Shown here one piece after another: positions 1 to 41,518 of a DNA stretch of 41,518 nucleotides (position 1 is its first letter; every line of letters starts with the position of its first letter). A program made the translations under genes and the position numbers. The notes beneath the pieces were generated by a model. It was not told where the DNA came from and searched no databases. It was given only the letters and a program-made list of their open reading frames with translations. The stretch is from positions 1-41,518 of IMG/VR virus record IMGVR_UViG_3300010376_000020. One strand, given 5' to 3'. The stretch comes from a virus.

Positions 1-123
1 AGCGCGGCGTCACTGATCGTGTCACCCGCCGCCTGGACGCCCGGGTCCATCACCACGGCGGGCTGAACGGCCTGCGCCTTCACATCGGGCGCTTGGATAC
101 ACTCCTGCGCCCACCGGAAACGA
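1..123. repeat. Terminal direct repeat, copy 1 (identical to 41396..41518)
   Basis: Direct reading: the 123 nt from agcgcggcgtcactgatcgtg to ccaccggaaacga are present at both ends of the window. Confidence 0.95.
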
Positions 124-1871: not shown

Positions 1872-1898
1872 GATCCCCTCCTCTGTCGATAAAGACTT

Positions 1899-2225
1899 TT
1901 ACGCCGCTTTAAGATCCGGCTGCAATGCGCCATTGACCTTCATGGGCGGCGGCTCGGGCGCGAGCTCCATCTTCGACTCTTCCGGCGCGTTATAGATGAG
2001 CGCGGTGCCTTGGAGACGCGCATTCTCGTAGCGGTCCACAGCGCGAGCCATGAGCGCGGCCCGCACGAAGGCATTTTGCTTCTCGACGACGTTCTCGACC
2101 ATCTTTCGCGCCCGCTCGATATCCATCGACAAAGCGCCGTACATAGCGAGAGCTTGTGTACGCTCCTGATCTAACTGCTGCGCCTGCATGATCTCTCGCT
2201 GCTCCAATTGGAATACTTTTTCCAT
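1899..2225 (-). CDS. Hypothetical coiled-coil protein between tail-tip protein and tail fibre
   Basis: 108-aa ORF in the 13-nt-spaced gene chain. It is rich in Q/E/A/R and looks helical. No motif recognised. Confidence 0.5.
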   Translation of the reverse strand: MEKVFQLEQREIMQAQQLDQERTQALAMYGALSMDIERARKMVENVVEKQNAFVRAALMARAVDRYENARLQGTALIYNAPEESKMELAPEPPPMKVNGALQPDLKAA

Positions 2226-2237
2226 GCCTTTTCTCCC

Positions 2238-8200: not shown

Positions 8201-8279
8201 TCTGGCCGCCCTTGCCGCTATCCACGTTGTCGAGATAGCCGGCGCGGTTCACGCCTGCGATGACAACTCCTATAGCCAT
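2238..8279 (-). CDS. Giant tail-tip / host-specificity protein (2013 aa, apparent fusion of distal-tail, hub and receptor-binding modules)
   Basis: A single uninterrupted 6042-nt ORF starts 2 nt after the tape-measure stop (TAA-TC-ATG). It contains internal tandem duplications (about 100-aa and about 250-aa modules), a Gly9 tract (6063..6089) and long beta-rich, T/S/G/N/P-rich segments typical of tail-tip and fibre proteins. Confidence 0.65.
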   Translation of the reverse strand: MAIGVVIAGVNRAGYLDNVDSGKGGQTKYTVASGQRGTASVSLRVHAGDTYAPLVGNPIGLYDQAGQRVFGGLITEIVKTNEGNTQETLYVCTCASFERLLDKHRIEPQSYFNQTAGAIFTAIFNSLPGETIILGQVDAGPVVPSAVYRHEVVTDVFNNLATDANFVWGVDPATEKLYFRAPTSVNAPFDLTGDPLTGAGVLWDTLEWDTAQQDFRSRQYITVNMQAMPTDTDLMTGDGTTTSFTLGNRVDTVTAVTILGGPASNMGTAGSLAFNDGDTITVGSVTYTVKTAIDNLSPNEVLIGSDSAGTMSNLAEAINGGPNMGTDFSNGTVPNPQCIATSNNNTITVTAIISGTSGNTIPTTTTCQPDEFSWPTDTLSNGNDGPTRAAVNGMFSGLPAANDTVTIDGIVYIFVATLDNTSSNQVLIGGTADACANNLVEAIAGAPHVAAGNDFSLPTLPHPTCVASYSGAGGLTVFAKAPGADGNNIAISAASTAFSWDNGNLTGGIPGPSQTATLQSGGSGTGTWIWTEGSDTISCTPALPNNVIAAVTYYRLGVDIIGVENTSLAQARAAVEGGSGIYQALIEEAYSIDPVANDPAAAIARANSLLASYGLLTQTLTFYTDSAGWQPGQALKVNLAPPFDSTLNGTWLTSQIDGSWIPGMPGWRCQVQAIAMSLNGRAASPDMRANSPTIIPRKATWQMLWQRLATINPRRQKPGGGLAVVAGTSAGGGGGGGGGNIPGAPPVSIVSEKTLMRQDGKWEVDVTYRRNASANSTNYLGAAVYLEDPDVSSESTIPLDGTSALDGTSNLGGDWVPIHVTDSTDDSSPVAVLVDAKNIQRNIRIYFAAYGPNTAPNLVRANAPGATPSIQVSIPVEPGAYQSGVEFTWLVSQCTVDVTDYFDQVSPDTGGAPPPCYTLLESYLPPDPTIPLPAGLSDFAGVQITYEYLNPDGTVASRVDGPFIPNAPSGDIDAVTGRAFAEYLTGGYAVGGGGTFNVYFRSQDVNGKTNTIVTGVTPMVQVEVIYPPPSQISTPDIANFVLANPRHTVLGDGTDLAQIDASWTPPDSARFAGVRFYVFKIGSSFLNPPMQIGPQQSDSVSACTLSVNNWPNVPQAWTVAAIAVGYNGQLNDDPHGPTHSPTQVWNIGPATTNNQGGDAPNITLGTCAVTPINSTSADGSQMIAFKLANWVNPDLTNPANNNWGGIKIALQFNSDPDATHLIWYDVPDKNATSFTTPPMPIIGNFQGPQTALTFYFVSKNQQGQLNAWNPAITPNLNYYWTPTFTPAPDVTSFTVDGAASSTATDIWQLDGSFVAQSTFAWNIPTSARYAGVVLYKVAVGGIAANPPVRLTSQQSNVDTHFLLQIPTIPNPAQTWTVAAISVDVNGVLSDDPSKYGAGLHSPTVTWTLGPPGPGGAGTDYAPLVTLGTTSVTPTTSVSGDGVGMVSFAVGSWTNPTSNNFGQAEVAMVINGQVNNAVYWKVPKGATSFTTPAMPSFGNIGANVPVAFYILSDNPQGQRNQLIPGTTPVINYTYVPSAGAVIPARSGWFSSEFSWPTSGSFQAQQFAAQKIYVGDQLIVGGAPTSFAGQTGGLNGQIAVKKAGGALVAWMGVSTPQTGEAGQGGVSGIYGAWFAQLYVGADSPLHAPVWINNAGIVMIGGIDSYTTDPSTGQPANHAGSTYPYISIRDATGLEKGRIGAKLNVASGQPGDNLGGSPPGITEGAWFTQFAAGGSNISNWCFSITPDGSNPLGSQVQIRNVYLFNIDYPAVSSTVSNQHYSVTFGNSVWTTAGMASASWQFPGFVIREVDNASNLFGATFISRGLVLRGTQSQSYPVLVSLVTFNGQSSGSDTPGVFWGELAMYSSNSPYNRTVYINSGSASSGNGAITTADVNGNALFIADQNGSISGKSFWVLGYGEVIGADGSWMGKAMPLPTSPTFTFVTSTQGFNVGANGSYQLNGTQVIDFQRNTNFNICTAASYSVGSSPGQSGVFHINDQNNVQRTVTFTNGIITQIV

Positions 8280-8281
8280 GA

Positions 8282-11065
8282 TTAGGGTGAGAATGCGGGC
8301 GAGACGTTTTTCAGATAACTCGCCACGGCCTGCGCGGTCTGCTGTGGGCTTTGCGCGCCGTTGATGGTGATATTCACCGTGAGAGGCATGGTGGCCAATT
8401 TTTTAATGTTGGTATTGATGTTGTCGGTGTCGCTCAGGAGGCCGACCCAGGCATCGTGAATCCAGGTGTTGATATTCAACAAAGGCGTGGTATTGACGGC
8501 AATGATGTGCAGCCAGTCCTGCACGCCGCCGCCGCCCAGACCCCCGATGAACATCGCGGTTTCGCGGGTGTTGAGCTCGATCGAGCGCAGGATGTCGGTC
8601 TGATGCGCATTTTGGATGTCGCCGATGACGCCGGTGACGAAAGAGCCCACCGCGCCGATGGCGCCCACCATGCCCATCGCACCGGAGAGCGCGCCACCGA
8701 CCGCGCTCGAAACTCCGCCACCCCCGCCTCCGCCGGGAAGGGGCAGGCCTGCTCCGCCTCCGCCTCCGCCTCCTCCGCCGCCTCCGCTAGGCCCGAAGAT
8801 CTTGGTCCACATCCCGCCCAAATCCGAGAGCTTCGACATCAGCGCATCGATCCCCTGCTTGATGAGCTTGTTCAGGATCACGTCGAGCACGTCCTGCCCG
8901 AGCTTGGTGAAGGCCTGCGAAAGATTGCCGGTTTGCAAGATCACGTCACTGATGCCTTTGGCGAGGTCGCGGTCAATAGCCTGGCCAATTTCCTGGCCCA
9001 TCGATTTGCCGGCGGTAGTGGCGGTCAGGAAATGCTCGCGCATCTGATCCGTGGCGCTAATCTGCGCCTGCGTCAGGACCGGCAGATTGCCCAGCTCGAT
9101 TTCCGTACCTTGGATATCGGTTGTGAGCTCCTGTACGCTCACGCCTGCATTTTTGGCGGCTGTCTCTAGTTGCTTGTAGGCTTCTTCCACCTGACTGCCA
9201 GAAAGCGTGCCCCAATTCACGAGTTGGACATAAGCGGTCAGCAGATCCTGGTACTGCTGCTGGTTTTTGGTGGTCTGGTCCTGAAGCTTGACCATCGCAT
9301 CGGTGACACCGCCCATCGCAGGCGGCACGTCGCCGATTTTGCCCGCAAGTTTATCCCAGTCGTCGATTTGCTTTTGGATGTTCTTGTCAACGTCCGCAGT
9401 GACCTTCTCGAGGCCCACGCCGTTCTGGAGGACGTAATCGTTCAGGATCTTCAACGCATCCGAGACTTGCGCGAAGCCGAGCGAGCCCTGGGCGCCGGCC
9501 TGGACCATCTCGGCCTGGAGCCGGATAAACTCGTCGTAGAGCTTGGAAACGTTGATACCCGCAGCAGCCTCGTTCCATTGCTCATCCAGGCCCGCGAAAC
9601 CTCGCTGGAACTGATCGAAAGCCTTCTGGGCGCTGTCATCGAGGGTCTTGAAGGGATTGGTTTCTCCGATAAGGCCTAATTCTTTGAGCTGTGCAATCGT
9701 AGAAACCGTGGCGCTTGTAGTTTGTGTCAGCGTGTTTCCGAGGCCTGCTATGCGCGTTCGAAACTGCTCTACACTCTCTCCGGTCTGATCGGTTTTCTGC
9801 TTCTGATCCCAGAAACCCGCGCTCACTGCCGCCATGTGCTCGCGGATGTAGTCCAGCTCGGTGCCGATATCGGTGTTGTTTTTGTAGGCCCGGATCGCCG
9901 CTGCGGCCAGGGTTGCGGCTTCGGCCAGCGCCTTCCATTCTGCGACGAACTGCTGTAGCGGCGGGATGAAATCGGTCCACTTGATGCCCAGTCCGCCCGT
10001 TCCAGTCAATTCCTTGAGCGGAGAGAGAACCTCGGCAACCGTGGTTTTGAGAACCGAAAAAGCTCCCGCCGCCTCGACCACGGCGTCCGCCAGCGGTTTT
10101 ACGAGGCCGGCCGCCTGGCCGATCAGGGGTATGAGCGGCTGGATGGCATTCAGCACCGTGATGATGGCTGGTGCTAAGGCGTTGCCCAATTCCTCGGCCG
10201 CGAACTCAAATTGCGTTTTTGCGTTCTGCCAAGTGCCCGCCAGATCGCCGGCGGTGGCTTGCGCGGTGCCCGCAAATTTTTGCAGAGCAAGATCCAATGC
10301 TTCAACGCGGTCAGCCACATCCATCGACTTGAAGAGGTTTTTAACCTGATCGTCAGCCACGCCCAGGACTTTCGCGAGATCATCCGTGGTTAGCCCAAGG
10401 CTAGCCAGCGTGCGCCCCATCGCATTGCCGGATAAACCGATCCGGTCGATGGTATCGGCAACGGTAGTAAAATCCGTTCCCAAAGCACGCGAGGCATCGG
10501 CTGCGGCCTGCAGGGTCGTCATCGTCTCTTCGGTCGAAAAGCCGAGTGCGGTCATGCGCTGCGCGGCTTGCGCGAGGGATGGGAAGCTCAATGCATCCGA
10601 GAGAGCTAGAGCCTTGAGGTCTTCGATCATCCCGGCCGCAACTTCGCCTGAACCCGTCAGCGCGGTAAGCGACGTTTCCACGCGCTGGACTGCGGCGTAG
10701 GTTTCCACTGCCTCAGTCACGAATTCCTTGAGGGTTTCGACAATTTGTTCGAGCCCGACATTGAATCCAGCAAATTCAGCCGCGAGATTCAGCGATTCCC
10801 CGAAGCCCTCAAAGGCGCCAGCGCCTTCGTGCGCGCCTTCTCCAGCCTGCTGAGCGGCTTGCCCGAGTCCTTCGACTTGCGGCGTAGCTTCACTAGCCGC
10901 CGCCCCCAATCCACCTGCATCTTGTGCAGCGGCAGTAAACGCCCCCGCGATCTCCTGCCCACCCGCCTGCGATGCGGCTACTGCGGCATCAATGGCCGCT
11001 TGCAAGTCCGACCAGTCGCCGATAATGTTTACATCGATATCGCCGATGCTCGCAGCTACCGACAT
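8282..11065 (-). CDS. Tail tape measure protein
   Basis: 927 aa, A/Q/L/G-rich and helical, lying directly after the chaperone pair (TAA then ATG, adjacent). The C-terminal part carries poly-Gly tracts (GGGGGGGGGGAGLPLPGGGGGGG). Size and position are canonical for a siphovirus tape measure. Confidence 0.85.
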   Translation of the reverse strand: MSVAASIGDIDVNIIGDWSDLQAAIDAAVAASQAGGQEIAGAFTAAAQDAGGLGAAASEATPQVEGLGQAAQQAGEGAHEGAGAFEGFGESLNLAAEFAGFNVGLEQIVETLKEFVTEAVETYAAVQRVETSLTALTGSGEVAAGMIEDLKALALSDALSFPSLAQAAQRMTALGFSTEETMTTLQAAADASRALGTDFTTVADTIDRIGLSGNAMGRTLASLGLTTDDLAKVLGVADDQVKNLFKSMDVADRVEALDLALQKFAGTAQATAGDLAGTWQNAKTQFEFAAEELGNALAPAIITVLNAIQPLIPLIGQAAGLVKPLADAVVEAAGAFSVLKTTVAEVLSPLKELTGTGGLGIKWTDFIPPLQQFVAEWKALAEAATLAAAAIRAYKNNTDIGTELDYIREHMAAVSAGFWDQKQKTDQTGESVEQFRTRIAGLGNTLTQTTSATVSTIAQLKELGLIGETNPFKTLDDSAQKAFDQFQRGFAGLDEQWNEAAAGINVSKLYDEFIRLQAEMVQAGAQGSLGFAQVSDALKILNDYVLQNGVGLEKVTADVDKNIQKQIDDWDKLAGKIGDVPPAMGGVTDAMVKLQDQTTKNQQQYQDLLTAYVQLVNWGTLSGSQVEEAYKQLETAAKNAGVSVQELTTDIQGTEIELGNLPVLTQAQISATDQMREHFLTATTAGKSMGQEIGQAIDRDLAKGISDVILQTGNLSQAFTKLGQDVLDVILNKLIKQGIDALMSKLSDLGGMWTKIFGPSGGGGGGGGGGGAGLPLPGGGGGGGVSSAVGGALSGAMGMVGAIGAVGSFVTGVIGDIQNAHQTDILRSIELNTRETAMFIGGLGGGGVQDWLHIIAVNTTPLLNINTWIHDAWVGLLSDTDNINTNIKKLATMPLTVNITINGAQSPQQTAQAVASYLKNVSPAFSP

Positions 11066-16043: not shown

Positions 16044-17770
16044 TAGGCGGCCCTCCCTTCCTTGAAGATCCGGCGCATGCGTTTGCGCTCCATGCGCTGA
16101 GCTTCGCTCTGCTCGCCTTCGTTGATCTTTTTGCCCACGAAGACATCCGCGAGGCGGCTCATGGATTCATCAAACTGCTCTTCCCATGCCTTGCCATCGT
16201 CCTCGGTGAGCTTCTTAATCTCGGCCTCCGTCATGCGCGTGCCCATCGAAGCCACTCCGTTTCCGTAGCCGAGTTGCGCCAGAAAGCGCGCCTCTTCGAT
16301 GGCTGCGCTTTCGACCAACTTGGCGAGAGCTTCGGTGTCGATTTTGCCGTCTTTGAAGGGCAGTAAAGGCGTAAGCCGCTCAGCGATGCGGCCGCGCGTG
16401 AGCGCAACGACATGCGGAGGCCCGGGCAGACGGATTCCGTTCAAGGCTTCGCTAATCGCTTGCGCGCCTTCCTTTTCCCGCACCATGCTTTCACGTAATG
16501 AGCGAATCTCATTCTTGAGCTCGCGTATGTCGGCTGCGTCCATACTTTCTCCTTCCAATGCGGACTCGAGCAGGAGCTTCCCGTCGCGTCCCGCTTTGGT
16601 GACTAAATCGATTGAATCGGCGCTCGTCAGCCGCTCGATCAGGCCCGGCTTACCGTCCGGCGCCTTGCGATTACCCTCGGCATAAAGGCCGCGCGCCCGG
16701 ATCGAAACGCCAGTGAACGGCGCTTTCTCCTGCACTTGCTGGGCGTACTCGCTGAAGACCTTCGCCGGCGCATAGAGCGCGGCCCCGTCTTTTCCGTGCT
16801 CGTCCCAGTAGGCATCTCCGGTAGTAACAGCCGCGAGCTTCGACCAGTCGCCTTCCGGCCGCTCGGCTTCCTCCGCCGGCGTGGCGTGATTGATATACAT
16901 CAGCGTGCCGCGCTTGAAGATCTGCGGGCCGTCGCGCTCGAGCACTTCCTTGGTGTAGTAGCCGGACGAGCCGCGGCCAGGCGAGATGATCTTGACGAGC
17001 GGGTTGACGGCGGTGGCTTCCTGGAATTGGTAACCGGCTTCGAAAGCCGCGGATTCGACCAGCCGCACGCCTTGACTGGCCCCTGGCCCCTGGCCCCTGG
17101 CCCCTTCTTCCTTGCTATCGCCGTCCTTGCCGTCTTTCTCTTCGTCCTGCCAGGATTGCGGCAAATGCTTATGCCAGCCCTTGCGCTTGGCGATCGCCTT
17201 GATGTTGCGCTTTAAGCTTCCGGCGCTCTGGCCGCCGGCCACGCCCCGGCCGATGGAGTGAACGGCGGCCATTACGTCGGAAGGACGCAGGATCGGAAAG
17301 GACCGGCCGGTGCCCGCAAAATCGGAAGTATCGGCCGCGTCTCTTTCCGATTTCGAAATGAAGCGCTCTCGAAGCGGTCGATACTTCCAGGTTAAGGAAC
17401 CGGGGAATCGCTCGACGAATTTCTTCTTCCCTTCCGCCTCGCCCATGCCCTCGATACCGTCTTCGTCCGCTTCCTCGTCATAGACCGTACGCGGCAGCAC
17501 GTCGACGGCGTTTTCTGTGTCGATCGAGTGCGTACGCTTGCCGGCATCAAAGCCGATCTCATAGGGCGCGCGGTAGTATTCGCCGTCTTTCTGGTACACC
17601 ACATCGCCCGAATCGTCGTCGCCGAACACGTCGCAGATGTAGCAGCAGCAAGCGGGGTAGAGATCGTGAAGGCAATCGGCGAGGCCGCGCGAGATATCGG
17701 AGTGGGAGAGCTCTTCGCCGGCTTCCTGAAGGCTCAGGGCGAGAGCTTCATAGGCGGGGGATAATGGCAA
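16043..17770 (-). CDS. Capsid scaffolding / prohead maturation protein (putative); start uncertain
   Basis: 575-aa ORF. The first codon at 17770 is TTG and has no SD. There is a very acidic central linker, and the segment ISPGRGSSGYYTKEVLERDGPQIF..GTLMYINH resembles protease/scaffold N-domains. The C-terminus is a long charged coiled coil typical of scaffolds. It lies directly upstream of the capsid genes. Confidence 0.45.
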   Translation of the reverse strand: MPLSPAYEALALSLQEAGEELSHSDISRGLADCLHDLYPACCCYICDVFGDDDSGDVVYQKDGEYYRAPYEIGFDAGKRTHSIDTENAVDVLPRTVYDEEADEDGIEGMGEAEGKKKFVERFPGSLTWKYRPLRERFISKSERDAADTSDFAGTGRSFPILRPSDVMAAVHSIGRGVAGGQSAGSLKRNIKAIAKRKGWHKHLPQSWQDEEKDGKDGDSKEEGARGQGPGASQGVRLVESAAFEAGYQFQEATAVNPLVKIISPGRGSSGYYTKEVLERDGPQIFKRGTLMYINHATPAEEAERPEGDWSKLAAVTTGDAYWDEHGKDGAALYAPAKVFSEYAQQVQEKAPFTGVSIRARGLYAEGNRKAPDGKPGLIERLTSADSIDLVTKAGRDGKLLLESALEGESMDAADIRELKNEIRSLRESMVREKEGAQAISEALNGIRLPGPPHVVALTRGRIAERLTPLLPFKDGKIDTEALAKLVESAAIEEARFLAQLGYGNGVASMGTRMTEAEIKKLTEDDGKAWEEQFDESMSRLADVFVGKKINEGEQSEAQRMERKRMRRIFKEGRAA

Positions 17771-25316: not shown

Positions 25317-25975
25317 TACCACTTGAAACCAGCTACCGGGAATTCAAAGGCCTTTGAGCCGTTCTGATAAAACTCCGCCTCGATGTGAACCACCTTGGCC
25401 TTTCGCATTTGTTGCACAAAGCCGCCCACATCCTGAATGAATAGCAGCGTTGTCGAATAGTCGCTCGGTCCAACAGCGGAAAAACGTTGAATTGGTCCTT
25501 GATCAAAGCGAACATTAACGGCACAGCCTTGTACATGGCAAATAAATTGGCCTCGTTCGATTCCAATAATCACATCCGTCAAGGTAGTCTTATTGGTCCG
25601 GACGGCCAACATGCCATGCTGGGCGCCCTGATAGGGAAATCCGAAATTGACCGTATTGCCGGATAATACAGTTGCTGTAAATTTCTCACGGCCCATTTGG
25701 TCTGTATTCTGTTCATAATCCCAGCCGGGCTCGGCAGTCTCCTTGATCGCAACCGGCTCGTGCGTGGATGTCGGTGCACTGGCTTGCACATTTCGCTTGC
25801 CGCCGAATGCCGCAATCATTACCGCCATCGTGACCGCGATTCCAACCAGCACGAGCAGGATCGTGATTTTGGGTGAAGTGCGCCGATGATCATGGCCGGT
25901 AAATTGATACCGGCATCGCTCGCAGAATTTGACTTGCCGTGGAAATACCATGCGGCATCTTCGACATTCACTCAT
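25316..25975 (-). CDS. Zinc-ribbon / single-TM membrane-anchored protein
   Basis: 219 aa. CRRC-x12-CERC at the N-terminus is followed by the TM helix ITILLVLVGIAVTMAVMIAAFGG and an exported domain of about 150 aa. ATGA overlap with the Imm-like gene. GC is visibly lower. Confidence 0.55.
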   Translation of the reverse strand: MSECRRCRMVFPRQVKFCERCRYQFTGHDHRRTSPKITILLVLVGIAVTMAVMIAAFGGKRNVQASAPTSTHEPVAIKETAEPGWDYEQNTDQMGREKFTATVLSGNTVNFGFPYQGAQHGMLAVRTNKTTLTDVIIGIERGQFICHVQGCAVNVRFDQGPIQRFSAVGPSDYSTTLLFIQDVGGFVQQMRKAKVVHIEAEFYQNGSKAFEFPVAGFKW

Positions 25976-26193
25976 TGCCGTTGATAACCTCCGAAGTTCG
26001 CTGCTGCGGCATCACCGCGCACTTTCACCGCCCATACCATCGCGATAACCCATCCCACGAAGGTCCAGCCGGCTAAAAAATTGAGAGCAAAAATCGCGCC
26101 GGCATTGCGGTTGCCTTTGGCCCACAGCGCAGGCAAAAAGTAGATCGCTCCGCCTATTGCAATGAGTACAACAAGTACAACAAATATATCCAT
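25972..26193 (-). CDS. Superinfection immunity protein (T4 Imm-like family)
   Basis: 73 aa. IYFLPALWAKGNRNAGAIFALNFLAGWTFVGWVIAMVWAV matches the YFLP...N...GWT.(I/V)GW...WA signature of the Imm_superinfect family. GGAGG SD present. Confidence 0.8.
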   Translation of the reverse strand: MDIFVVLVVLIAIGGAIYFLPALWAKGNRNAGAIFALNFLAGWTFVGWVIAMVWAVKVRGDAAAANFGGYQRQ

Positions 26194-27043: not shown

Positions 27044-27277
27044 ATGCAAAATCGCAAGACGGGGCATTTGAGAAGAGGGCAGGTATCGCCGGAGGAGCGC
27101 CAGATCCGGTATATGCGCCTGATTGTCCTGGACGGCTTCCAATACGAGATACCCAGGTCTATGGCCTTGTACATTCTCGACGGCAAGGACAAAGCCGAAC
27201 GCCTTGCGGCATCATCCAAGGACAATTCCTGCGTCAGCTACTCGGGCATCTCCCGGGTTTGGCGTGAACAACGCTAG
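27044..27277 (+). CDS. Hypothetical small basic protein (plus strand)
   Basis: 77 aa from ATG 27044 with GGAGGG about 10 nt upstream. I prefer it to the overlapping minus-strand ORF 26944..27225, which is R/C-rich and lacks an SD. Confidence 0.4.
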   Translation: MQNRKTGHLRRGQVSPEERQIRYMRLIVLDGFQYEIPRSMALYILDGKDKAERLAASSKDNSCVSYSGISRVWREQR

Positions 27278-27564
27278 CGTCCTCGCTGCTCCATCATGCG
27301 CTCCCGCAGAATCCCGTTAATGCGGCCCTGATACCCGGCACCTTGCGATTTGAGCCAAGCCAGCACATCCGCGTCTAAGCGTAAGGCGATGGGTTTCTTG
27401 AGCGGCCGATAGTATTTGCCGACGATGGCGCCTTCCCAAGCCTCGGGCGGCAAGGTCGGGGCTTCCGGGTCCGCGCTATCTTGTGAAGGATCACGTTCGG
27501 CATAAGCTTTGCGAATGGCATCGGTAATCTTAAGCCGACGCTTCTTGGTAGAGACTTTCTTCAT
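27274..27564 (-). CDS. brnA: BrnA-type antitoxin (DUF4415-like)
   Basis: 96 aa. The C-terminus KKPIALRLDADVLAWLKSQGAGYQGRINGILRERM matches the BrnA/DUF4415 signature. It lies downstream of brnT and overlaps it. Confidence 0.75.
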   Translation of the reverse strand: MKKVSTKKRRLKITDAIRKAYAERDPSQDSADPEAPTLPPEAWEGAIVGKYYRPLKKPIALRLDADVLAWLKSQGAGYQGRINGILRERMMEQRGR

Positions 27565-27829
27565 AACGGGTCACCTTTCGGGCGGTAATAAACCGCAGCC
27601 GGATGTGATGCTCATCGCTGCGATCCACGAAGATCACCGTCAGCAACAGTAAATCGCCGCTCCTGCCAATCGCCTGATAGCGCTGTTCACCATCTTCGGA
27701 AAAGTAGTAGTTTTCGATGACGATGTGACATGGATCGTCGAAGATTTGAATTGCCTGCTCGAAGGAGATTCCATGCAAGCGCCGATTTCTTTCGGCCTTC
27801 GTGGAATCCCAGCTATAGCTCACTTCCAT
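27530..27829 (-). CDS. brnT: BrnT-type ribonuclease toxin (DUF497-like)
   Basis: 99 aa. The N-terminus YSWDSTKAERNRRLHGISFEQAIQIFDDP matches the BrnT signature W-D..KA..N..KHG(I/V)SFEEA..(V/I)F.DP. Confidence 0.8.
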   Translation of the reverse strand: MEVSYSWDSTKAERNRRLHGISFEQAIQIFDDPCHIVIENYYFSEDGEQRYQAIGRSGDLLLLTVIFVDRSDEHHIRLRFITARKVTRYEESLYQEASA

Positions 27830-27867
27830 CTATACTCTAGTGTATAGACAGAAATGTATAATGTCAA
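27830..27867 (-). promoter_or_regulatory. brnTA promoter/operator: TTGACA (rc of 27862..27867), weak -10, and 18-bp near-perfect palindrome CTATACTCTAGTGTATAG (27830..27847) abutting the ATG
   Basis: Read directly. The palindrome has one mismatched central pair. There is no SD before ATG 27829. The -35 hexamer overlaps the terL stop codon. Confidence 0.5.
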
Positions 27868-29219
27868 TACCTCGAAATCACCACCGGCTCCATGAACGCC
27901 ATCGCCACGGTCCGCTCCTCCGGCTCCACCACCAGGTCCGTCACCGCCCACACCAGCGCGTCCATCCGGTCCGGCGACCGCATGTCTGCATCCGGCGCCC
28001 ACTCGCACATCTGCTGCTCGAGTTCCGCGAGCCGGCCGACATGATGCACCCGGCCCTGCTCGTACAACGCCGCCACCGGCTCCGCGCGCACCGCTTTGCC
28101 GCGGGAAGCACGCACCGCGCGAAACGCGACTTCCGGAGCAACGGCCCGGATGTTGGCTTCGACCAGATCGCCGCCGTTGTTCACCTCGCCCACGATCCGG
28201 TCAGCGCGCTGTGTCCGGTACGCCGTCACCGCAACCCGCGCCCAGCCGAGCGGCGTTTCCCGGCAGCTCAGGTCGTCGAGCACGATCACGTGATTCGCCC
28301 GGGTGAGCGCCGCCACGACGATGCCGGTCTCGGCGGAGTCTTCCTCATGCGACACCGCTGGATCGATTGCCACCACGATGCGAATGATCGCGGTCCAATC
28401 GACATCGTGGGAGCCGATGCGCGCCGCGTCGATCTGCTGTTGCTTCCACAATGCGCCGGGATGATCTTCCAAAATCTCGGCCATCAGCTCCTGCCGGCCG
28501 AGGCGCGTGCCTTCATAGCGCTTGATGATCGAGTCGAAGAACGCGACCGACAGATTGGCGCGGTTGTCGTAGGTGGTCGCGCGCGTCACCACGGTGTGCG
28601 GCTCGGCGAGAATTTCCTTGAGTACCGCGAGCGGTTTGGGTGTCGTCGTGATGATGCCGCGCGGATCGTCGCCCAAGCGCCAGCCGAATTGCAGGTTGTC
28701 CCAGGCTTCGCGCAGGTAGCGCCAGGCGGCGACCTCGTCGGCTGCGAAATGGCTGCACTGCGGGCCGCGCAAACGCTCAGGTTCATCCGCGCTGAATAGT
28801 TCGGCAACTGCCCCGGTGTGAAACTTAATCAGCCGCTTCGAAGGCTCGTATTCCGGACGCTGATGGCGCGGGAAGCAGTTGAGCAGACCGCTCTCGCCCA
28901 GGACCATCACGTTGCGCACGTCGGCCGCCGTCGGTCCCACCAGATGAATCCGCTTCGCGCCCTGCTCCACCCACTGCCGCACCGTTTCGCCGCCACATCT
29001 CGTCTTGCCGAAGCCGCGGCCGGCGAGCACCACCCAGATGCGCCAGTCTTTGCGCGCGTCGGCCGCGTCGTCCGAACCCGGCGGAAGCTGCGCGGGCCGC
29101 GCCCAGAAGCGCCAATCGTAAAGCAGCTCTTCAGCTTGCTTGGGCTTGATCGCTTTCAGAATTTGCTCCCGCTTCGAGACGGGCAGCCGCGCTAAGGATT
29201 CGGCCACGGAATAAGTCAT
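27864..29219 (-). CDS. terL: Terminase large subunit
   Basis: 451 aa from ATG 29219. The Walker-A-like segment VVLAGRGFGKTRCG is followed by HLVGPTAADVRNVMVLGESGLL, a pattern I associate with Terminase_6 / GTA-like large terminases. A C-terminal nuclease-like acidic region is present. The start is uncertain; the ORF is open to 29486. Confidence 0.85.
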   Translation of the reverse strand: MTYSVAESLARLPVSKREQILKAIKPKQAEELLYDWRFWARPAQLPPGSDDAADARKDWRIWVVLAGRGFGKTRCGGETVRQWVEQGAKRIHLVGPTAADVRNVMVLGESGLLNCFPRHQRPEYEPSKRLIKFHTGAVAELFSADEPERLRGPQCSHFAADEVAAWRYLREAWDNLQFGWRLGDDPRGIITTTPKPLAVLKEILAEPHTVVTRATTYDNRANLSVAFFDSIIKRYEGTRLGRQELMAEILEDHPGALWKQQQIDAARIGSHDVDWTAIIRIVVAIDPAVSHEEDSAETGIVVAALTRANHVIVLDDLSCRETPLGWARVAVTAYRTQRADRIVGEVNNGGDLVEANIRAVAPEVAFRAVRASRGKAVRAEPVAALYEQGRVHHVGRLAELEQQMCEWAPDADMRSPDRMDALVWAVTDLVVEPEERTVAMAFMEPVVISRY

Positions 29220-29631
29220 AGGCTCGGTGTTCGATTTGGATCGGATCGCCGTTCGGTCCGCTGATAGCGTGCTCATAGCGCTCGCGGTATTTTTCCGGCG
29301 CTGCGCCTTTGAGCAGGAAAATGAGCAGCGTGTCGGAATATTCGCGGATGGTGACGCGCTTGCCCGCCACCGTCGTCGGTTTGTTAACGCCCTCGACGGC
29401 GCGCCGCCACGCTTCGTCTTCGAGCAGTTGCACGATGGCTTTGCGGGCCTTTTCGAATTGCGCCTTGTATTCCGGGTCACGATCAAGCCACTCGTAGTGA
29501 TTCCTGCGATGCAGACCGACCACCTCGAAGGCTTTATCTATCCGGCCGACTTCCTGGTAGCGCATCAGCACGGCCATTTTGGTGGCCTTCAAGTGGCCCA
29601 GCTTTTTAGGACGTGCGATTACGCGACTCAC
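29131..29631 (-). CDS. terS: Terminase small subunit (putative)
   Basis: 166 aa from GTG 29631 (GTGA overlap with the upstream stop), or 148 aa from ATG 29577. It has an HTH-like N-terminus, and the segment SDTLLIFLLKGAAPEKYRER is typical of small terminases. It lies directly upstream of terL and overlaps it. Confidence 0.6.
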   Translation of the reverse strand: MSRVIARPKKLGHLKATKMAVLMRYQEVGRIDKAFEVVGLHRRNHYEWLDRDPEYKAQFEKARKAIVQLLEDEAWRRAVEGVNKPTTVAGKRVTIREYSDTLLIFLLKGAAPEKYRERYEHAISGPNGDPIQIEHRAYDLFRGRILSAAARLEAGANSESDQAQAS

Positions 29632-31280: not shown

Positions 31281-31963
31281 CGTGCCCTCAGAGCGGCCAT
31301 CAATTCGGCTTGCTCGGCGGCGCTTAGATGCGCGCGGATAGATTTGGCAAAGCCGTTTACGGTCGCCGGATGCTGGATCATTACTGGCCGGAATCCAGCC
31401 ATTACTGCTGCTGCGTTCGCCGATAGCTCGCCGACTTCCACTTTGCGCGCAAGGTCTGGACGGTCGCGCTTCAATCGGACGAGAACGCCAGTAGGACTCT
31501 CATGATGAAAGCCCCGCATATTATGCGTAGCTTTCTTTCCTCTTCCCCCCATCGCGCCCGCTTCCGCATGAGTCTTGGCTTCTGGCGTAAGCTCGCGAAT
31601 AATCCGCAGCGCGATCTCCGCGTCTTCCTCGCCCTTATAAGCTGCACAAATGCGCTTTAAACCCTCCGCTCCTTCCGGAACATCCAGACCTTTGGGCCAT
31701 TTTGCCCGCGCGAATTTATCAAAGTCTGAGTCAGCGTAATCGAATACCTTCCCGAAATCATCCGCATAATGCTGCCACGCTTTGGTTTCCAAGGCTTGCC
31801 GCAGAAAACGCGGACAGTTTCGGAAGGCGTCCGCGCCATAAGTCGCCGTGCGGGCGAGCTCGCGAACGATTTCCAGGTTCTTAATCGCCCGCGCATCCGG
31901 CCAGGGACATTTATCGGTATGCGGAATCGGCTTGATCAGCAAGGCGTTGTGTGAGCCACGCAT
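31277..31963 (-). CDS. Putative DNA-binding protein (KorB/ParB-like HTH tail)
   Basis: 228 aa from ATG 31963 with a GGAG SD. The C-terminal segment RLKRDRPDLARKVEVGELSANAAAVMAGF is a motif I associate with phage/plasmid DNA-binding proteins. It overlaps the helicase 3' end by 53 nt. Confidence 0.4.
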   Translation of the reverse strand: MRGSHNALLIKPIPHTDKCPWPDARAIKNLEIVRELARTATYGADAFRNCPRFLRQALETKAWQHYADDFGKVFDYADSDFDKFARAKWPKGLDVPEGAEGLKRICAAYKGEEDAEIALRIIRELTPEAKTHAEAGAMGGRGKKATHNMRGFHHESPTGVLVRLKRDRPDLARKVEVGELSANAAAVMAGFRPVMIQHPATVNGFAKSIRAHLSAAEQAELMAALRAR

Positions 31964-33758
31964 ATTTACGCTCCAATTCTTTAACCGGCGCCTGGGCTTG
32001 ACGGCTGCCCCCCAGGGAAGCCATCCATTCGTTGTGTACCTTTTGAACTTCGACCGAAAGCAGTTTCGATAATTTGAAAGCCATCGCATTGCATTCACGC
32101 CTAAGCCTCTGCTCCTGTTCATATTCCGGCTCAGGACAGGGAGGAGACTTCTCGCTGCGTTCCTCGTGATCATGCAGGAACAATAAGGCCGCAATTTGTT
32201 CGTCATGGGCTTCCGTTATGCCCACGCGTTGACGCAGGTCTCTGGCATAGCTGATTTGATCGGCTGAAAAAGTCGCACCGGTCGAGATCGTGTCCGCATC
32301 CTCTGCCGCCGTTTCCAATACGTGAAACGTCCCGTTTTCCGTACGTTCACCCGGGGTTCGCTCCTGCGGCTGCCTCCTTTTCGGCTCTTCCAGCACATGC
32401 GCGATTTCATCTTCAATCTCTTGTGCCAGCGCCCGGAGTTCGGGATGATTCGGCAGAAAGACGAATGCTCGCTGGAGCTTCACGCCTTCGCTCATCCGCA
32501 CCACGCGGCCCACGGCTTGCCGGAAAAAAAGCGGCGCCCGCCAATCCGTGGCATAGACCAAAACTGCCAGCCGATCGATATCCACACCCTCGCTAACCAT
32601 GCGCACCGCGACCAGCCAGCGGCGATCCGACTCGCGAAAAGCGTCGATGCTGGTGGCCTCCTCATGGTCCGAGATCACAAGGTCCGCACGCTCGTTGGTT
32701 ACGCTTTCGATGAGCCGCTTGTACCGCTCTGCCGCTTCACGGTCGGACGCAATGATAAGCCCGCCCGCATTGCGATGTCCCGCTTTCCGGCAATCCGAGA
32801 GTTTTTCGTTCGCCTGGCGGCACAGTGTCCGCATGTAATCGCCAGCCGGATTCAACAGCGCCCACATCCGCTCCCGGTCCAGCGATGGCGGCAGCTCGTC
32901 TAGAAGCGTGGCCTGCTGTTCCCCTTCGCACCCAATCCAATGAGCACTCCCGTCCTTCATGGGAAAATGCACCACCCGGCAAACCTTGTCACGGATGGCA
33001 TCCGCATATCCATACGTGAAATCAGCAATACTTTGCCAAGTGTTCGGTTTATCGTCGACAGGTTCGTAGTGCACAAAGGGAATCCGCACACCGTCCGAGC
33101 GAAAGGGCGTGCCCGATAATCCCAGCCGGAATTCTGCGCCGCCAAAAGCGGTCTGCGCTGCTTCACCCCATGTACCTTCGCCCAGATGATGCTGCTCGTC
33201 GAAAATGACCGCCGTCGATTTCCTCGCGCATAACTGGCGGTGCATGTGTTGTTGAGAGGCAAGACTCTGATAAGTCACAACCAGGCCCTGATAAGTCGAG
33301 CTTTCCGGATGATCGCCGCTCCAGTTCGGATTTAGCGCAATCATTCCCGCCGCCTTTTTCGCCCACTGATATTTGAGCGCTTCCGTCGGCACTACCACTA
33401 CCAGTCGCCGCGCCCGCCCTCGGAGCAGTTCCGCACTCGCCCGTATGGCCGCGTGAGTCTTGCCGGAACCCGGAGTCGCAGCCAGAAGATAATCCCGTAT
33501 CTCCGGGCTGCGATTTTTGAAATGCGATAAAAACCTCTCTTGCCAATCGCGTATAGTCATATTGGATGTGCCTTTCTGCCGGTTACAGTCGGGGCAGAGC
33601 GCCTGCCCGTTGAAAACATCCGTGGGGCCGCCGGTCGCATATGCCTGTATGTGATCGGCGTTCCATCCTTGCATTAATTCGGCCCCGCATCGAGCGCAAC
33701 ACCCCTCCGCCTGAAGATACAGGGCCCGGCGTTCGCCAAGAGAAAAGAAACGTTTCAC
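31911..33758 (-). CDS. HNH endonuclease domain fused to SF2 (DEAD/DEAH-like) helicase
   Basis: 615 aa with a GTG start. The N-terminal 65 aa carry CARCG...ADHI...GG...N.QALCPDCNRQKG (HNH). They are followed by ATPGSGKT (Walker A), FDEQHH (motif II), SGTPFRSD (motif III) and QAVGRVVR (motif VI). Confidence 0.8.
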   Translation of the reverse strand: MKRFFSLGERRALYLQAEGCCARCGAELMQGWNADHIQAYATGGPTDVFNGQALCPDCNRQKGTSNMTIRDWQERFLSHFKNRSPEIRDYLLAATPGSGKTHAAIRASAELLRGRARRLVVVVPTEALKYQWAKKAAGMIALNPNWSGDHPESSTYQGLVVTYQSLASQQHMHRQLCARKSTAVIFDEQHHLGEGTWGEAAQTAFGGAEFRLGLSGTPFRSDGVRIPFVHYEPVDDKPNTWQSIADFTYGYADAIRDKVCRVVHFPMKDGSAHWIGCEGEQQATLLDELPPSLDRERMWALLNPAGDYMRTLCRQANEKLSDCRKAGHRNAGGLIIASDREAAERYKRLIESVTNERADLVISDHEEATSIDAFRESDRRWLVAVRMVSEGVDIDRLAVLVYATDWRAPLFFRQAVGRVVRMSEGVKLQRAFVFLPNHPELRALAQEIEDEIAHVLEEPKRRQPQERTPGERTENGTFHVLETAAEDADTISTGATFSADQISYARDLRQRVGITEAHDEQIAALLFLHDHEERSEKSPPCPEPEYEQEQRLRRECNAMAFKLSKLLSVEVQKVHNEWMASLGGSRQAQAPVKELERKYAWLTQRLADQADSAYR

Positions 33759-35633: not shown

Positions 35634-35702
35634 CCGGAAGCGCAGAAAGCCAAAGAGGCCACCTCCCCCGAGACTGACCAACCTCGCTTTCTACGCTTCC
35701 GG
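35634..35702. terminator. Long imperfect inverted repeat (17-bp arms, 16/17 paired, 35-nt loop); candidate terminator/insulator or structured RNA
   Basis: CCGGAAGCGCAGAAAGC (35634..35650) pairs with GCTTTCTACGCTTCCGG (35686..35702). On the minus-strand transcript the hairpin is followed by GTTGGTTTTC. It lies in the convergent gap between xis and the 108-aa gene. Confidence 0.35.
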
Positions 35703-35717
35703 CTCGAGACTCGCCAC

Positions 35718-36044
35718 CTAATCGACGACGCTGCGAAAATCGCGCTCTTCGTCATATTCGCGTGCGATCATGACCTCTCCTTCCCATCCAGCCGGGAGCA
35801 CGCTGATCGTCCCCTCCGGGTCGTGGTCCTCGTGCTGGATGGAAATTCCGCCCTCTTCGGAAACCCGCAAGAACGTGCGCCCGTCGATCTCGAACATTTC
35901 CGCGTTGGCTTCGTCGGCCATACAGATGCGGTGGGAATGTCCGGTCTTCTCCCCGAACGCGAATGGACGCAGCGGAATTCTCTTTGCGCCCGCCGGGATT
36001 TTTCCGGCGATGAATCCTACATCTCCTTGTCGTGCGGTAAGCAT
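35718..36044 (-). CDS. Hypothetical protein (QGDV ... GE.TGHSH motif)
   Basis: 108 aa with a GGAGAAAG SD. I have seen the RQGDV...P.GAK...A.GE.TGH.H pattern in small phage proteins of unknown function. Confidence 0.5.
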   Translation of the reverse strand: MLTARQGDVGFIAGKIPAGAKRIPLRPFAFGEKTGHSHRICMADEANAEMFEIDGRTFLRVSEEGGISIQHEDHDPEGTISVLPAGWEGEVMIAREYDEERDFRSVVD

Positions 36045-36062: not shown

Positions 36063-37223
36063 TTACGTCTGCCAATCTGGTTGATATTCGGCGGGTTTCA
36101 CATTAAACCGCCAACTTAAACCTTCGAGCGCTGTCCGTACATCCGGAGGCACACGCTCAAAATAGACGCTCCCCGTGCTTGGACAAGTGAGACGCATCAT
36201 GCGAATCTCTACCGGATCTCCAGGAAGTTGGAGCGCGAGCAGAGTCGCGCCATGCTCAACGGCATGATCTACTTCATTAGCTCCAGCGTCGATCATGAAG
36301 CGATCGTTTCCATAGAGATTTCGCATGACGCGGCGAACTTCTGTGTTTTGTTCCTTGAGAATGCTGCCAACCGTGATTTTGTCGCGTTCTCCAATAATAT
36401 TCGCGGGGACCCGTACACCATGCCATGCATAGATAGCCCATCCGTCTGGATACATGACCGCCGGGCTGGTTTCACAATGCAATCGTCCGCGGTCATCTCG
36501 AACGAGAATATGATGACGCTCTGAAACCCAACAAATGTGCTGGTGCGGGAGATACCAACCGGCAGTTTGCGCCTGCTCGAAATAGCCTGTCAGCTTTTCC
36601 GTTTGTGCTGTTAGACCGCATTGCTCCCGAAAGAATAAATAAAACGCCAGCCAGTTAGCGTCATGCTGTCCGTAACCGCTGTCCCGGACGCTGTCCCGGA
36701 CGCTGGCCCCGACGCTGGCCCAGACGCTGTCCCAGACGCTGGCCCGGACGCTGTCCCAGACGCTGTCCCCCACGCTGTCCCGGACGCTGTCCCAGACGCT
36801 GGCCCCGACGCTGGCCCCGACGCTGGCCCGGACGCTGGCCCCGACGCTGGCCCGGACGCTGTCCCGGACGCTGTCCCCGACGCTGTCCCAGACGCTGTCC
36901 CCGACGCTGGCCCGGACGCTGGCCCGGACGCTGGCCCCGACGCTGGCCCCGACGCTGGCCCGGACGCTGTCCCGGACGCTGGCCCCGACGCGTTTATCGA
37001 GGATGATTGCGCGGGTTAAGCCCTGGGATAGAGGAGATCCACACCAGACGATCTTGCGGGGAATTTCCAAACCAGCAGATACATACATCTGCTTGATGGC
37101 CGCTTCCGCACGTGGCCTGTCGGCAGCATCTGTCGATAACCCAATCTTGATCCAACGATCACGATATTCCGCCAGCTTATCCGTTTGTTGTTTGTTCAGT
37201 GATTGTATTTTTTTCAGTGGCAT
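36063..37223 (-). CDS. Tetrapeptide-repeat protein: (V-[G/R/W]-[A/D]-S) x 26 followed by a conserved C-terminal domain (possibly DUF6745-like)
   Basis: 386 aa from ATG 37223; the ORF is open to 37256. The repeat is at 36678..36989. The C-terminal domain contains GRLHCETSPAVMYPDGWAIYAWHGVRVP and KEQNTEVRRVM, which I recall from an uncharacterised bacterial family that often has SVWDSV-type repeats. Confidence 0.6.
   Translation of the reverse strand: MPLKKIQSLNKQQTDKLAEYRDRWIKIGLSTDAADRPRAEAAIKQMYVSAGLEIPRKIVWCGSPLSQGLTRAIILDKRVGASVRDSVRASVGASVGASVRASVRASVGDSVWDSVGDSVRDSVRASVGASVRASVGASVGASVWDSVRDSVGDSVWDSVRASVWDSVWASVGASVRDSVRDSGYGQHDANWLAFYLFFREQCGLTAQTEKLTGYFEQAQTAGWYLPHQHICWVSERHHILVRDDRGRLHCETSPAVMYPDGWAIYAWHGVRVPANIIGERDKITVGSILKEQNTEVRRVMRNLYGNDRFMIDAGANEVDHAVEHGATLLALQLPGDPVEIRMMRLTCPSTGSVYFERVPPDVRTALEGLSWRFNVKPAEYQPDWQT
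36678..36989 (-). repeat. 26 tandem 12-nt units GCTG[T/G]CCC[C/G/A]GAC (plus strand), in frame
   Basis: I counted the array unit by unit. Only two nucleotide positions per unit vary, apart from one GAC to CAC change in unit 8. All other positions, including synonymous sites, are invariant. Confidence 0.95.
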
Positions 37224-37387
37224 ATCCGTTTCCACCAGCAGGTCAGGCGCACCCACCAGCCCGGATGCCGGCGCCGGTAGTCAGCCTCCATCAGCACCCG
37301 CCGCACGTCGATGGAGACGATTGCCGCCGCCTGGCCCGCCAATCGTTCCGTGCGCGTCCAGTGGCGGGATTCGGATAGCTCCCTCAT
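37214..37387 (-). CDS. Hypothetical small basic/Trp-rich protein
   Basis: 57-aa ORF not in the supplied track (MRELSESRHWTRTERLAGQ...WWVRLTCWWKRICH). ATGA overlap with the upstream stop, GGGAG SD, and its stop lies 8 nt inside the next gene. Confidence 0.45.
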   Translation of the reverse strand: MRELSESRHWTRTERLAGQAAAIVSIDVRRVLMEADYRRRHPGWWVRLTCWWKRICH

Positions 37388-41355: not shown

Positions 41356-41518
41356 CTATAGGAAATTCTGGATCGCCGTCTCGGTCGCCGTCTGCAGCGC
41401 GGCGTCACTGATCGTGTCACCCGCCGCCTGGACGCCCGGGTCCATCACCACGGCGGGCTGAACGGCCTGCGCCTTCACATCGGGCGCTTGGATACACTCC
41501 TGCGCCCACCGGAAACGA
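41356..41518 (-). CDS. 3' part of the junction-spanning 112-aa ORF (see 1..299)
   Basis: The frame from ATG 299, carried through the terminal repeat, ends at TAG 41358..41356. Confidence 0.55.
   Translation of the reverse strand, partial: RFRWAQECIQAPDVKAQAVQPAVVMDPGVQAAGDTISDAALQTATETAIQNFL
41396..41518. repeat. Terminal direct repeat, copy 2 (identical to 1..123)
   Basis: Direct reading. Confidence 0.95.

Follow-up and report, generated by a model that had tools for sequence, protein, structure and literature searches.

The 41,518-nucleotide (nt) stretch of viral DNA analyzed here (IMG/VR record IMGVR_UViG_3300010376_000020, positions 1 to 41,518; hereafter the window) carries a gene of the DUF6745 family whose 386-amino acid (aa) product contains, between two conserved domains, an array of 26 tetrapeptides encoded by 12-nt units that vary almost exclusively at two bases. 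Analysis of its relatives revealed that the same residue pattern recurs across the family in different codons, that the arrays evolve in concert and gain, lose and rearrange blocks of units between nearly invariable flanks, and that the gene is linked to a small gene for a His-rich protein. From its likeness to gp54 of the mycobacteriophage Tweety, we tentatively propose that the array is a recombination-tuned, exposed binding surface on a conserved protein body, used in phage conflict. No paper in the literature searched mentions DUF6745, a family that is catalogued but uncharacterized, and we found no description of the array, of the N-terminal domain or of the partner gene.

The gene, its parts and its partner are located as follows, with the evidence in brackets:

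36063..37223, minus strand: gene of the DUF6745-family protein, 386 aa (list of open reading frames (ORFs), translation, Pfam PF20530)
36990..37223, minus strand: conserved N-terminal domain, aa 1-78 (alignment A1 of 71 homologues, AlphaFold2)
36678..36989, minus strand: V-[R/G/W]-[A/D]-S array, aa 79-182 (sequence, Tandem Repeats Finder (TRF), G+C profile)
36063..36677, minus strand: 'GYGQHD' junction, DUF6745 domain (aa 183-386) and stop codon (Pfam, AlphaFold2)
35718..36044, minus strand: partner gene, 108-aa His-rich all-beta protein (BLAST clustering, alignment A2, hidden Markov model (HMM), AlphaFold2)

The Pfam profile DUF6745 (PF20530), which covers the C-terminal domain only and has no assigned function, matched aa 176-386 with an E-value of 1.1e-41 and 142.8 bits, against a gathering cut-off of 27, and positions 2-206 of its 206 were covered, making this a full-length match. 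A first-pass annotation of the window had guessed at this family for the C-terminal domain, and the profile search bears it out. The ATG at 37223 agrees with the N-termini of the homologues, an upstream GTG at 37256 being an unlikely alternative start, and an identical protein (P0001) is present in the JGI collection. Invariant columns of alignment A1 are L9, Q13, W24, G28, L29, E40, Y47, P55, S63 and P64, and, beyond the array, G185, H187, P259, D260, G261 and G269; the motifs of the N-terminal domain are W24, G28-L29, E40, Y47, P55 and 'IVWCGSPL'. The window protein is built like its close relatives: some 75 aa of N-terminal domain are followed by a linker or array with a period of 4, then by 'GYGQHD' and the DUF6745 domain. 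Members with this architecture were also found in the Microcystis phages LMM01 and MaMV, in an uncultured siphovirus and in the Mycobacterium prophage prophiGD102-1 (gp38).

Direct inspection of the sequence showed 26 head-to-tail units (312 nt) that read GTC-[C/G/T]GG-G[A/C]C-AGC on the minus strand, and TRF returned a period of 12, 26.2 copies and a score of 434, with a 36-nt period no better than 12. Among the 26 units, nt 4 is C in 11, G in 10 and T in 5, and nt 8 is C in 14 and A in 12; apart from a single synonymous GTG (Val) at nt 3 in unit 19, the other nine unit positions are invariant. The resulting tetrapeptides are VGAS (7), VRAS (6), VRDS (5), VWDS (4), VGDS (3) and VWAS (1), a recount that reproduces the number of units and the tallies of the first-pass annotation exactly. 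A two-unit pattern matched 25 times in the window, always within the array (0.01 matches expected by chance). The array forms a G+C spike of 76-78% against a background of 50-60%, and with 12 Asp and 11 Arg its net charge is about -1. A GGG tract lies in each unit (NGG of codon 2 plus the G of codon 3), so that 26 such tracts recur every 12 nt along the coding strand and the mRNA, which could promote slippage or structure. The antisense strand is open too, as a 118-aa ORF of (A/G)-(V/G)-P-D repeats (36663..37019, plus strand) that is most likely a by-product of a repeat unit free of stop codons.

A word-indexed search with the window protein yielded more than 3,393 relatives among the matches listed, and an exhaustive phmmer search with the C-terminal domain yielded 8,798 clusters (50% identity) at E <= 1e-3. 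The family extends over more than 12 phyla and hundreds of viral contigs, with arrays present at chromosomal loci and in phages alike. SV[WRG][DA]-type repeats are a regular feature of homologues, much as the first-pass annotation had suggested (SVWDSV-type). Among the 2,426 units taken from 105 close homologues, Val occupied position 1 in 96% and Ser position 4 in 97%, whereas position 2 was divided between Arg (32%), Gly (31%) and Trp (28%), and position 3 among Asp (44%), Ala (39%) and Asn (9%); Leu (2.1%) and Gln (0.5%) were rare at position 2. At the nucleotide level, the mean minor-base fraction in 25 non-redundant arrays derived from genomes of more than 12 phyla was 0.51 at nt 4 and 0.39 at nt 8, compared with 0.10 or less elsewhere, and 65 viral arrays gave 0.53 and 0.38 at the same two positions.

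The codons of the fixed positions are uniform inside each array and differ from one array to another. Position 1 is encoded by GTC, GTG or GTT (Val), or is replaced by Ile (ATC) or Leu (CTC); position 4 is encoded by TCG, AGC, TCC, AGT or TCT (Ser), or is replaced by Gln (CAG or CAA). The pattern [hydrophobic]-[R/W/G]-[D/A/G]-[S/Q] is kept whatever the codons, as in the array L-[W/R/G]-[G/D]-Q of prophiGD102-1 gp38; in the uncultured siphovirus the array reads L-[W/R/G/E]-S-S, with position 2 variable and position 3 fixed as Ser. Since the same residues are written with different codons in different arrays, the constraint acts on the protein and the arrays evolve in concert, rather than serving as a DNA element. 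The family-wide codon data thereby agree with the homogenization, and diversity at two sites, that had been noted at first pass from the window alone, and speak against its alternatives of constraint at the DNA level and of an iteron or origin. The degenerate repeats that it had named as a sign against its reading were found, but only in distant, array-less members. As a whole, that first interpretation is supported in part; it had missed the partner gene, the block shuffling and the precedent of Tweety gp54.

Codon choice at the variable positions was equally distinctive. Within arrays, 95% of the Gly codons at position 2 were GGG and 95% of the Arg codons were CGG or AGG, compared to 23% and 29%, respectively, in the flanks of the same genes, implying that Arg, Gly and Trp are swapped by single changes at the first base of NGG faster than synonymous drift accumulates. 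One array departs clearly from this rule: that of a Planctomycetota locus (L009; metagenome-assembled genome (MAG) JANNTD01, 1590..2786) uses CGC, TAC and GGC for Arg, Tyr and Gly, with eight units of each, so that Tyr stands in for Trp. TAC lies two mutational steps from CGC or GGC, so the aromatic residue appears to be selected, and Leu and Gln are scarce although a single step from CGG would yield either and both favour helices. Mutation alone thus does not explain the variation, and from these sequence data we read selection for Arg, an aromatic residue and Gly in combination at position 2.

Six groups of proteins with identical or nearly identical N- and C-terminal flanks (100% in five groups, 97-100% in that of L013) carry different arrays; they include paralogues in long-contig MAGs:

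Window and its twin contig L001: 26 and 3 units
L058 and L062: 26 and 32 units, the difference being one 6-unit block
L003, L004 and L066: 31, 30 and 33 units
L013, L014, L017 and L020: 18, 18, 18 and 15 units
P0021 to P0031: 35 to 50 units
P0009, P0014 and P0015: 8, 4 and 5 units

Within a group, the arrays are related mostly by the insertion, loss or rearrangement of whole blocks of unit types already present. Unequal recombination or slippage between units fits this pattern, as point hypermutation does not, and is very probably how the arrays evolve. The in-frame length variability predicted at first pass is thus seen among near-identical proteins, whose unit numbers differ with the frame kept. 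Along the arrays, adjacent identical units are depleted (observed/expected 0.78-0.87) and neighbouring units follow only a weak Arg to Trp to Gly cycle.

An AlphaFold2 model of the DUF6745 protein based on 71 homologues (predicted local distance difference test (pLDDT) 82, predicted TM-score 0.70) packed the N-terminal and DUF6745 domains into one body, both with pLDDT above 90 (93-98 for most of aa 11-70 in the former, about 90-97 in the latter). The array was modelled, with low confidence, as a pair of long helices (77-135 and 143-180) with a turn between them. Array-less homologues, such as those of Bradyrhizobium, Catellatospora and an acidobacterium (L024), have at the same site a non-repetitive or degenerate 4-periodic linker resembling a helix-turn-helix, so that the array looks like the expansion of a pre-existing hairpin. 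Judging from the models, the chances that the array is an exposed hairpin are about even. The solenoid imagined at first pass is at variance with this low-confidence hairpin, and the nucleic-acid mimic, its other suggestion, is at variance with the balance of Asp and Arg. Foldseek searches of the PDB with the models of the DUF6745 protein and of the partner gave no match below E = 0.3, a structure search of BFVD with the DUF6745 model returned only other DUF6745 proteins, and the A1 profile matched only low-complexity PDB sequences (the EEVG repeats of P230, and TLP-4). PADLOC and NCBIfam scans gave nothing meaningful.

The closest parallel found is gp54 of mycobacteriophage Tweety, which contains 48 copies of A-A-[G/W/Q]-[S/Y] encoded by 12-bp units with invariant wobble positions and a G+C spike (PMC2884959); the unit table that we re-derived agrees with the published type of array. 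Repeat number differs in the related proteins Che8 gp57 and PMC gp51, from which the authors infer selection for variation (PMC2884959). According to reviews of later work, defence-escape mutants gain or lose gp54 repeats, which tunes the neutralization of defences encoded by Phrann gp29/gp30 or by a MichelleMyBell prophage (PMC9262239, PMC8549241), by a mechanism described as obscure (PMC8549241). Both gp54 and the window protein are products of early-region genes of temperate siphoviruses, with conserved N- and C-terminal parts flanking a G+C-rich 12-bp array, two fixed and two variable residues per tetrapeptide, Gly and Trp among the variants, and invariant third-codon positions. In both, copy number varies between near-identical phages, which for the window means 26 units against 3 in its twin, a pair that may reflect short-read collapse, in addition to the five further groups. 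They differ in the unit itself, as gp54 has no Arg/Asp toggles like those of V-[R/G/W]-[D/A]-S, and in distribution: the relatives cited for gp54 belong to mycobacteriophages, whereas DUF6745 members form about 8,800 clusters (50% identity) in more than 12 phyla. No His-rich partner was seen among the genes annotated beside Tweety gp54.

On the reading that we favour, a cytoplasmic phage protein with two domains is produced from the early operon and has the array as its variable middle part, whose tetrapeptides would form an exposed extension between the N-terminal domain and the DUF6745 domain. Purifying selection keeps the frame residues (hydrophobic at position 1, small and polar at position 4), and positions 2 and 3 toggle by single-base changes, NGG giving Trp, Arg or Gly and GNC giving Asp or Ala, so that interface-type residues (Trp, Arg, Asp) are intermingled with 'blank' ones (Gly, Ala). 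Bogan and Thorn are said to have reported in 1998 that Trp, Arg and Tyr are the residues most enriched at the hot spots of protein interfaces. Unequal recombination or slippage between the 12-nt units, always in frame, is the main source of change: blocks of existing unit types are gained, lost or reordered at a pace far above that of mutation in the flanks, and the synonymous sites are homogenized in the process. By analogy with gp54, the length and pattern of the array could then set the target specificity of a protein-binding module of the counter-defence type in conflicts between phage and host or phage and prophage. A binding role for the array seems possible to us, and a counter-defence-type function, which is drawn from the gp54 analogy, is rather doubtful.

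Several observations weigh against this proposal. Many members of the family have no array (an array of at least five 4-periodic units was present in 57 of the 146 top phmmer representatives) and some DUF6745 genes sit among housekeeping genes, so that the body must have a function independent of the array and not necessarily specific to phages. Over most of the array the pLDDT of the hairpin model is 40-55, Val, Ser and Gly are poor helix formers, and complementarity across the hairpin (Trp with Gly, Arg with Asp) gave no signal in 104 arrays compared with shuffles (mean z <= 0.26). The difference between 26 and 3 units may be a collapse of the short-read assembly, and the high diversity at two sites could also reflect old unit types reshuffled neutrally instead of ongoing selection. 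Homology to gp54 was rejected: its flanks had no Pfam match and hhalign against alignment A1 gave a probability of 0.3%, which makes the window protein an analogue of gp54 and not a member of its family.

If the analogy with gp54 holds, tunable repeat arrays would be a general strategy of phage conflict and not a mycobacteriophage curiosity, and the DUF6745 family would supply many natural variants of length and pattern for working out the tuning. Tweety gp54 is the only case that we found in which the number of tetrapeptide repeats retunes phage counter-defence, and the DUF6745 family shows the same design in a non-homologous and far larger set of proteins, with a cleaner two-residue code and a conserved partner gene. 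A more far-reaching version, to which we give a low probability, would make the DUF6745 arrays a widespread recombination-driven recognition system composed of tetrapeptide 'pixels' (Trp, Arg or blank, plus Asp or blank) on an exposed scaffold, which unequal recombination of the 12-nt units would rewrite, retargeting the body and a metal-binding partner to changing defence and counter-defence proteins. If true, phages and bacteria would have a third way of diversifying proteins in a programmed manner, beside diversity-generating retroelements (DGRs) and cassette switching, and it would span more than 12 phyla and generalize the single case of gp54.

Alternatively, the array could be a neutral runaway repeat, in which an easily slipping 12-nt unit expanded in a length-tolerant linker, with no function for the array and with variable sites that are simply the only tolerated ones. 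Such neutrality would account for the range of 0 to 66 units among close homologues, for the many members that lack an array, for the near independence of positions 2 and 3 within a unit (observed/expected 0.9-1.14) and for the failure to find any rule of order or pairing. It does not explain why a composition of Arg, Gly and Trp in roughly equal thirds, with Asp and Ala, should recur across more than 12 phyla in different codons, why Leu and Gln, as reachable by mutation, are rare, why Tyr takes the place of Trp in the one array with an NNC frame, or why identical neighbours are depleted. In addition, gp54, a non-homologous phage protein of the same design, has a demonstrated repeat-dependent phenotype (PMC9262239). 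We therefore consider that neutral expansion is unlikely.

The binding array that we propose would not act alone, as the DUF6745 protein probably acts together with the product of the adjacent gene, which begins in the window 18 nt past the DUF6745 stop codon. This partner is a protein of about 100-115 aa across loci, without a Pfam family, that was modelled by AlphaFold2 as all-beta with a pLDDT of 88 and that has the invariant features RQGDV, TGHxH, H71, H74, E96-Y97 and a C-terminal Asp (alignment A2). An HMM built solely from close relatives of the window copy placed it directly beside the DUF6745 gene, in the same orientation, in 47 of the 83 loci from genomes; of the 80 viral loci, 49 have it on the same strand. 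The proportion is thus about 60% of loci, and BLAST clustering adds more. It usually lies just upstream of the DUF6745 gene and overlaps it, and lies downstream in loci of the window type. No third gene is conserved at DUF6745 loci, whose neighbours are heterogeneous, indicating that DUF6745 and its partner form a self-contained cassette of phage early regions and chromosomal loci. At least nine copies of the cassette were present in one Candidatus Marinacidobacterales MAG (CBDFHB01; L013-L017, L020, L032 and L073), with arrays that differ and flanks that barely do. In six copies (L013-L017 and L020) the cassette sits toward the right end of a larger element, perhaps a prophage or transposable phage. 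This element exceeds 7.6 kb, shows 96-99% identity from copy to copy and stops some 600 nt beyond an HNH gene; L032 and L073 have about 88-93% identity only, over shorter stretches.

The same linkage might point to a prophage-borne defence or toxin-antitoxin-like cassette that aids the lysogen, with the array as a sensor for proteins of invading phages and the body or partner as effector or regulator. A small and a large gene tightly linked on the same strand, often overlapping and in an order that can flip, a cassette that moves independently of its neighbours and is multi-copy in some genomes, as in the Candidatus Marinacidobacterales MAG, and a position adjoining the integrase, where accessory genes of prophages tend to sit, would all suit such a role. 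We think it improbable nonetheless, as no PADLOC model matched apart from a weak match to the repeat region (type II nicking-endonuclease; E = 0.009, 12.7 bits), the known defence components among 145 neighbours amounted to two methyltransferases plus candidate PADLOC model matches, no toxin-like or nuclease fold was detected, and in the window the pair is oriented like the early lytic operon and lacks a separate promoter-like site.

The array, or its length of 26 units, could also result from the mis-assembly of a short repeat, a concern already voiced at first pass. A contig from another sample (L001; ENA ERZ27264385 k141_6402969, assembled with MEGAHIT) is 100% identical to the window over more than 20 kb but has 3 units, and the junction falls in a 33-nt stretch common to units 1-2 and 24-25, so that this twin is either a real deletion allele or an assembly collapse. 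Moreover, 14 of 80 IMG/VR contigs with homologues begin or end exactly inside the array (L119, L120, L132, L133, L137, L140, L142, L145, L152, L155, L156, L159, L162 and L164). As a recurrent breakpoint, the array evidently challenges short-read assemblers, and its diversity is probably under-sampled and under-recorded. On the other hand, exact repeats inside the window array reach 43 nt at most, so that they are resolved with any k larger than about 44 and the path is unique at ordinary k-mer sizes. Hundreds of independent assemblies, among them Mb-scale contigs and long-contig MAGs (contigs of 0.5 to 5.9 Mb), contain arrays of 10-60 units, lengths of 20-60 being the norm. The pattern is thus robust in long contigs and an artefact quite improbable, while only reads could confirm the precise figure of 26, given the 3-unit twin and the contigs that break within the array.

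It is very improbable that the repeats are a DNA-level element (iterons or an origin, a recombination or packaging site, or a G-tract structure) with an incidental ORF, since the array, for all its perfectly phased 12-nt units, high G+C content, GGG tracts and open plus-strand frame, is always in frame within a conserved gene, keeps its amino-acid pattern in homologues while the DNA differs, has no second copy in the genome and occurs at chromosomal loci in many phyla besides phages. The chance that targeted hypermutation, for instance by a DGR, writes the two variable bases is negligible: such a process would explain diversity limited to two nucleotides per unit with silent synonymous sites, but a template for the repeat is absent from the window, the scanned ORFs yielded no reverse transcriptase, the variable bases are C/G/T and A/C and not adenine-specific, and near-identical proteins differ by block indels and not by point changes.

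Other known repeat systems resemble the window array less closely. The authors of the Tweety report cite as similar the VR2 region of bbp36 in Bordetella phages BMP-1/BPP-1, an in-frame 24-bp element repeated 9-20 times in a non-essential gene (PMC2884959). Compared by description only, it is likewise a variable-number in-frame tandem repeat in a phage gene, with another unit length and sequence and with no two-position combinatorial pattern reported. Transcription activator-like effectors consist of units of 33-35 aa that read DNA bases one to one. These effectors, grouped here with minimalist binding codes, share with the window array near-identical tandem units, diversity at two adjacent residues and evolution by recombination, a resemblance in logic only, as the window unit has 4 aa and its array is roughly charge-neutral. 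Pentapeptide-repeat DNA mimics such as MfpA and Qnr have an A(D/N)LXX period and form a beta-helix whose surface is strongly acidic in the mimics. Although the window protein is likewise a short-period repeat protein, this class was rejected on account of its period of 4 and not 5, the absence of a Pfam pentapeptide match, the helical prediction and the net charge of about -1.

Regarding the genomic context, the ends of the window (1..123 and 41396..41518) are identical over 123 nt, implying that the contig is a complete phage genome, circular or circularly permuted, whose unique sequence amounts to about 41.4 kb. The window encodes portal, large terminase, head protease/capsid, tape measure, tail spike and tyrosine integrase functions, together with a Gam/Gp157-like protein, an HNH-helicase and a BrnT/BrnA pair, a content that indicates a complete temperate tailed phage. 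The DUF6745 gene is the second-to-last of a leftward operon, beyond whose end lie an excisionase-like ORF and the integrase gene, in keeping with its early placement at first pass. Further features of this operon are:

37214..37387, minus strand: small upstream ORF, 57 aa (ORF list, gene calls on twin contig L001)
40630..40659, minus strand: promoter-like site TTGACA-18-TATCAT, 11/12 matches, with TG (consensus scan, tentative)
35654..35669, minus strand: terminator-like hairpin with T-run, about 50 nt past the partner gene (consensus scan, tentative)

The stop of the 57-aa ORF, which has no homologues at most other loci, overlaps the DUF6745 start by 10 nt, which suggests translational coupling in the operon. 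Tentatively, the promoter-like site may serve the leftward early operon; in all, such sites are no more numerous than in shuffled sequence. The hairpin is possibly the end of the operon.

Elsewhere in the window, a single ORF of 2,013 aa without a Pfam match on record (2238..8279, minus strand) follows a tape-measure-like gene (8282..11065), and two other short tandem repeats were seen, a 6-nt CTCCGC repeated 6 times (8752..8787) and a perfect 7-nt CTGGCCC repeated 4.3 times (17076..17105). A 73-aa ORF of the Imm_superinfect family lies at 25972..26193 (minus strand), and the BrnT toxin/BrnA antitoxin pair (27274..27829, minus strand; Pfam, twin contig) lies just downstream of the large terminase gene (27864..29486). 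Adjoining the integrase is a gene for a 615-aa fusion of an N-terminal HNH endonuclease and a DEAD/ResIII helicase (31911..33758, minus strand).

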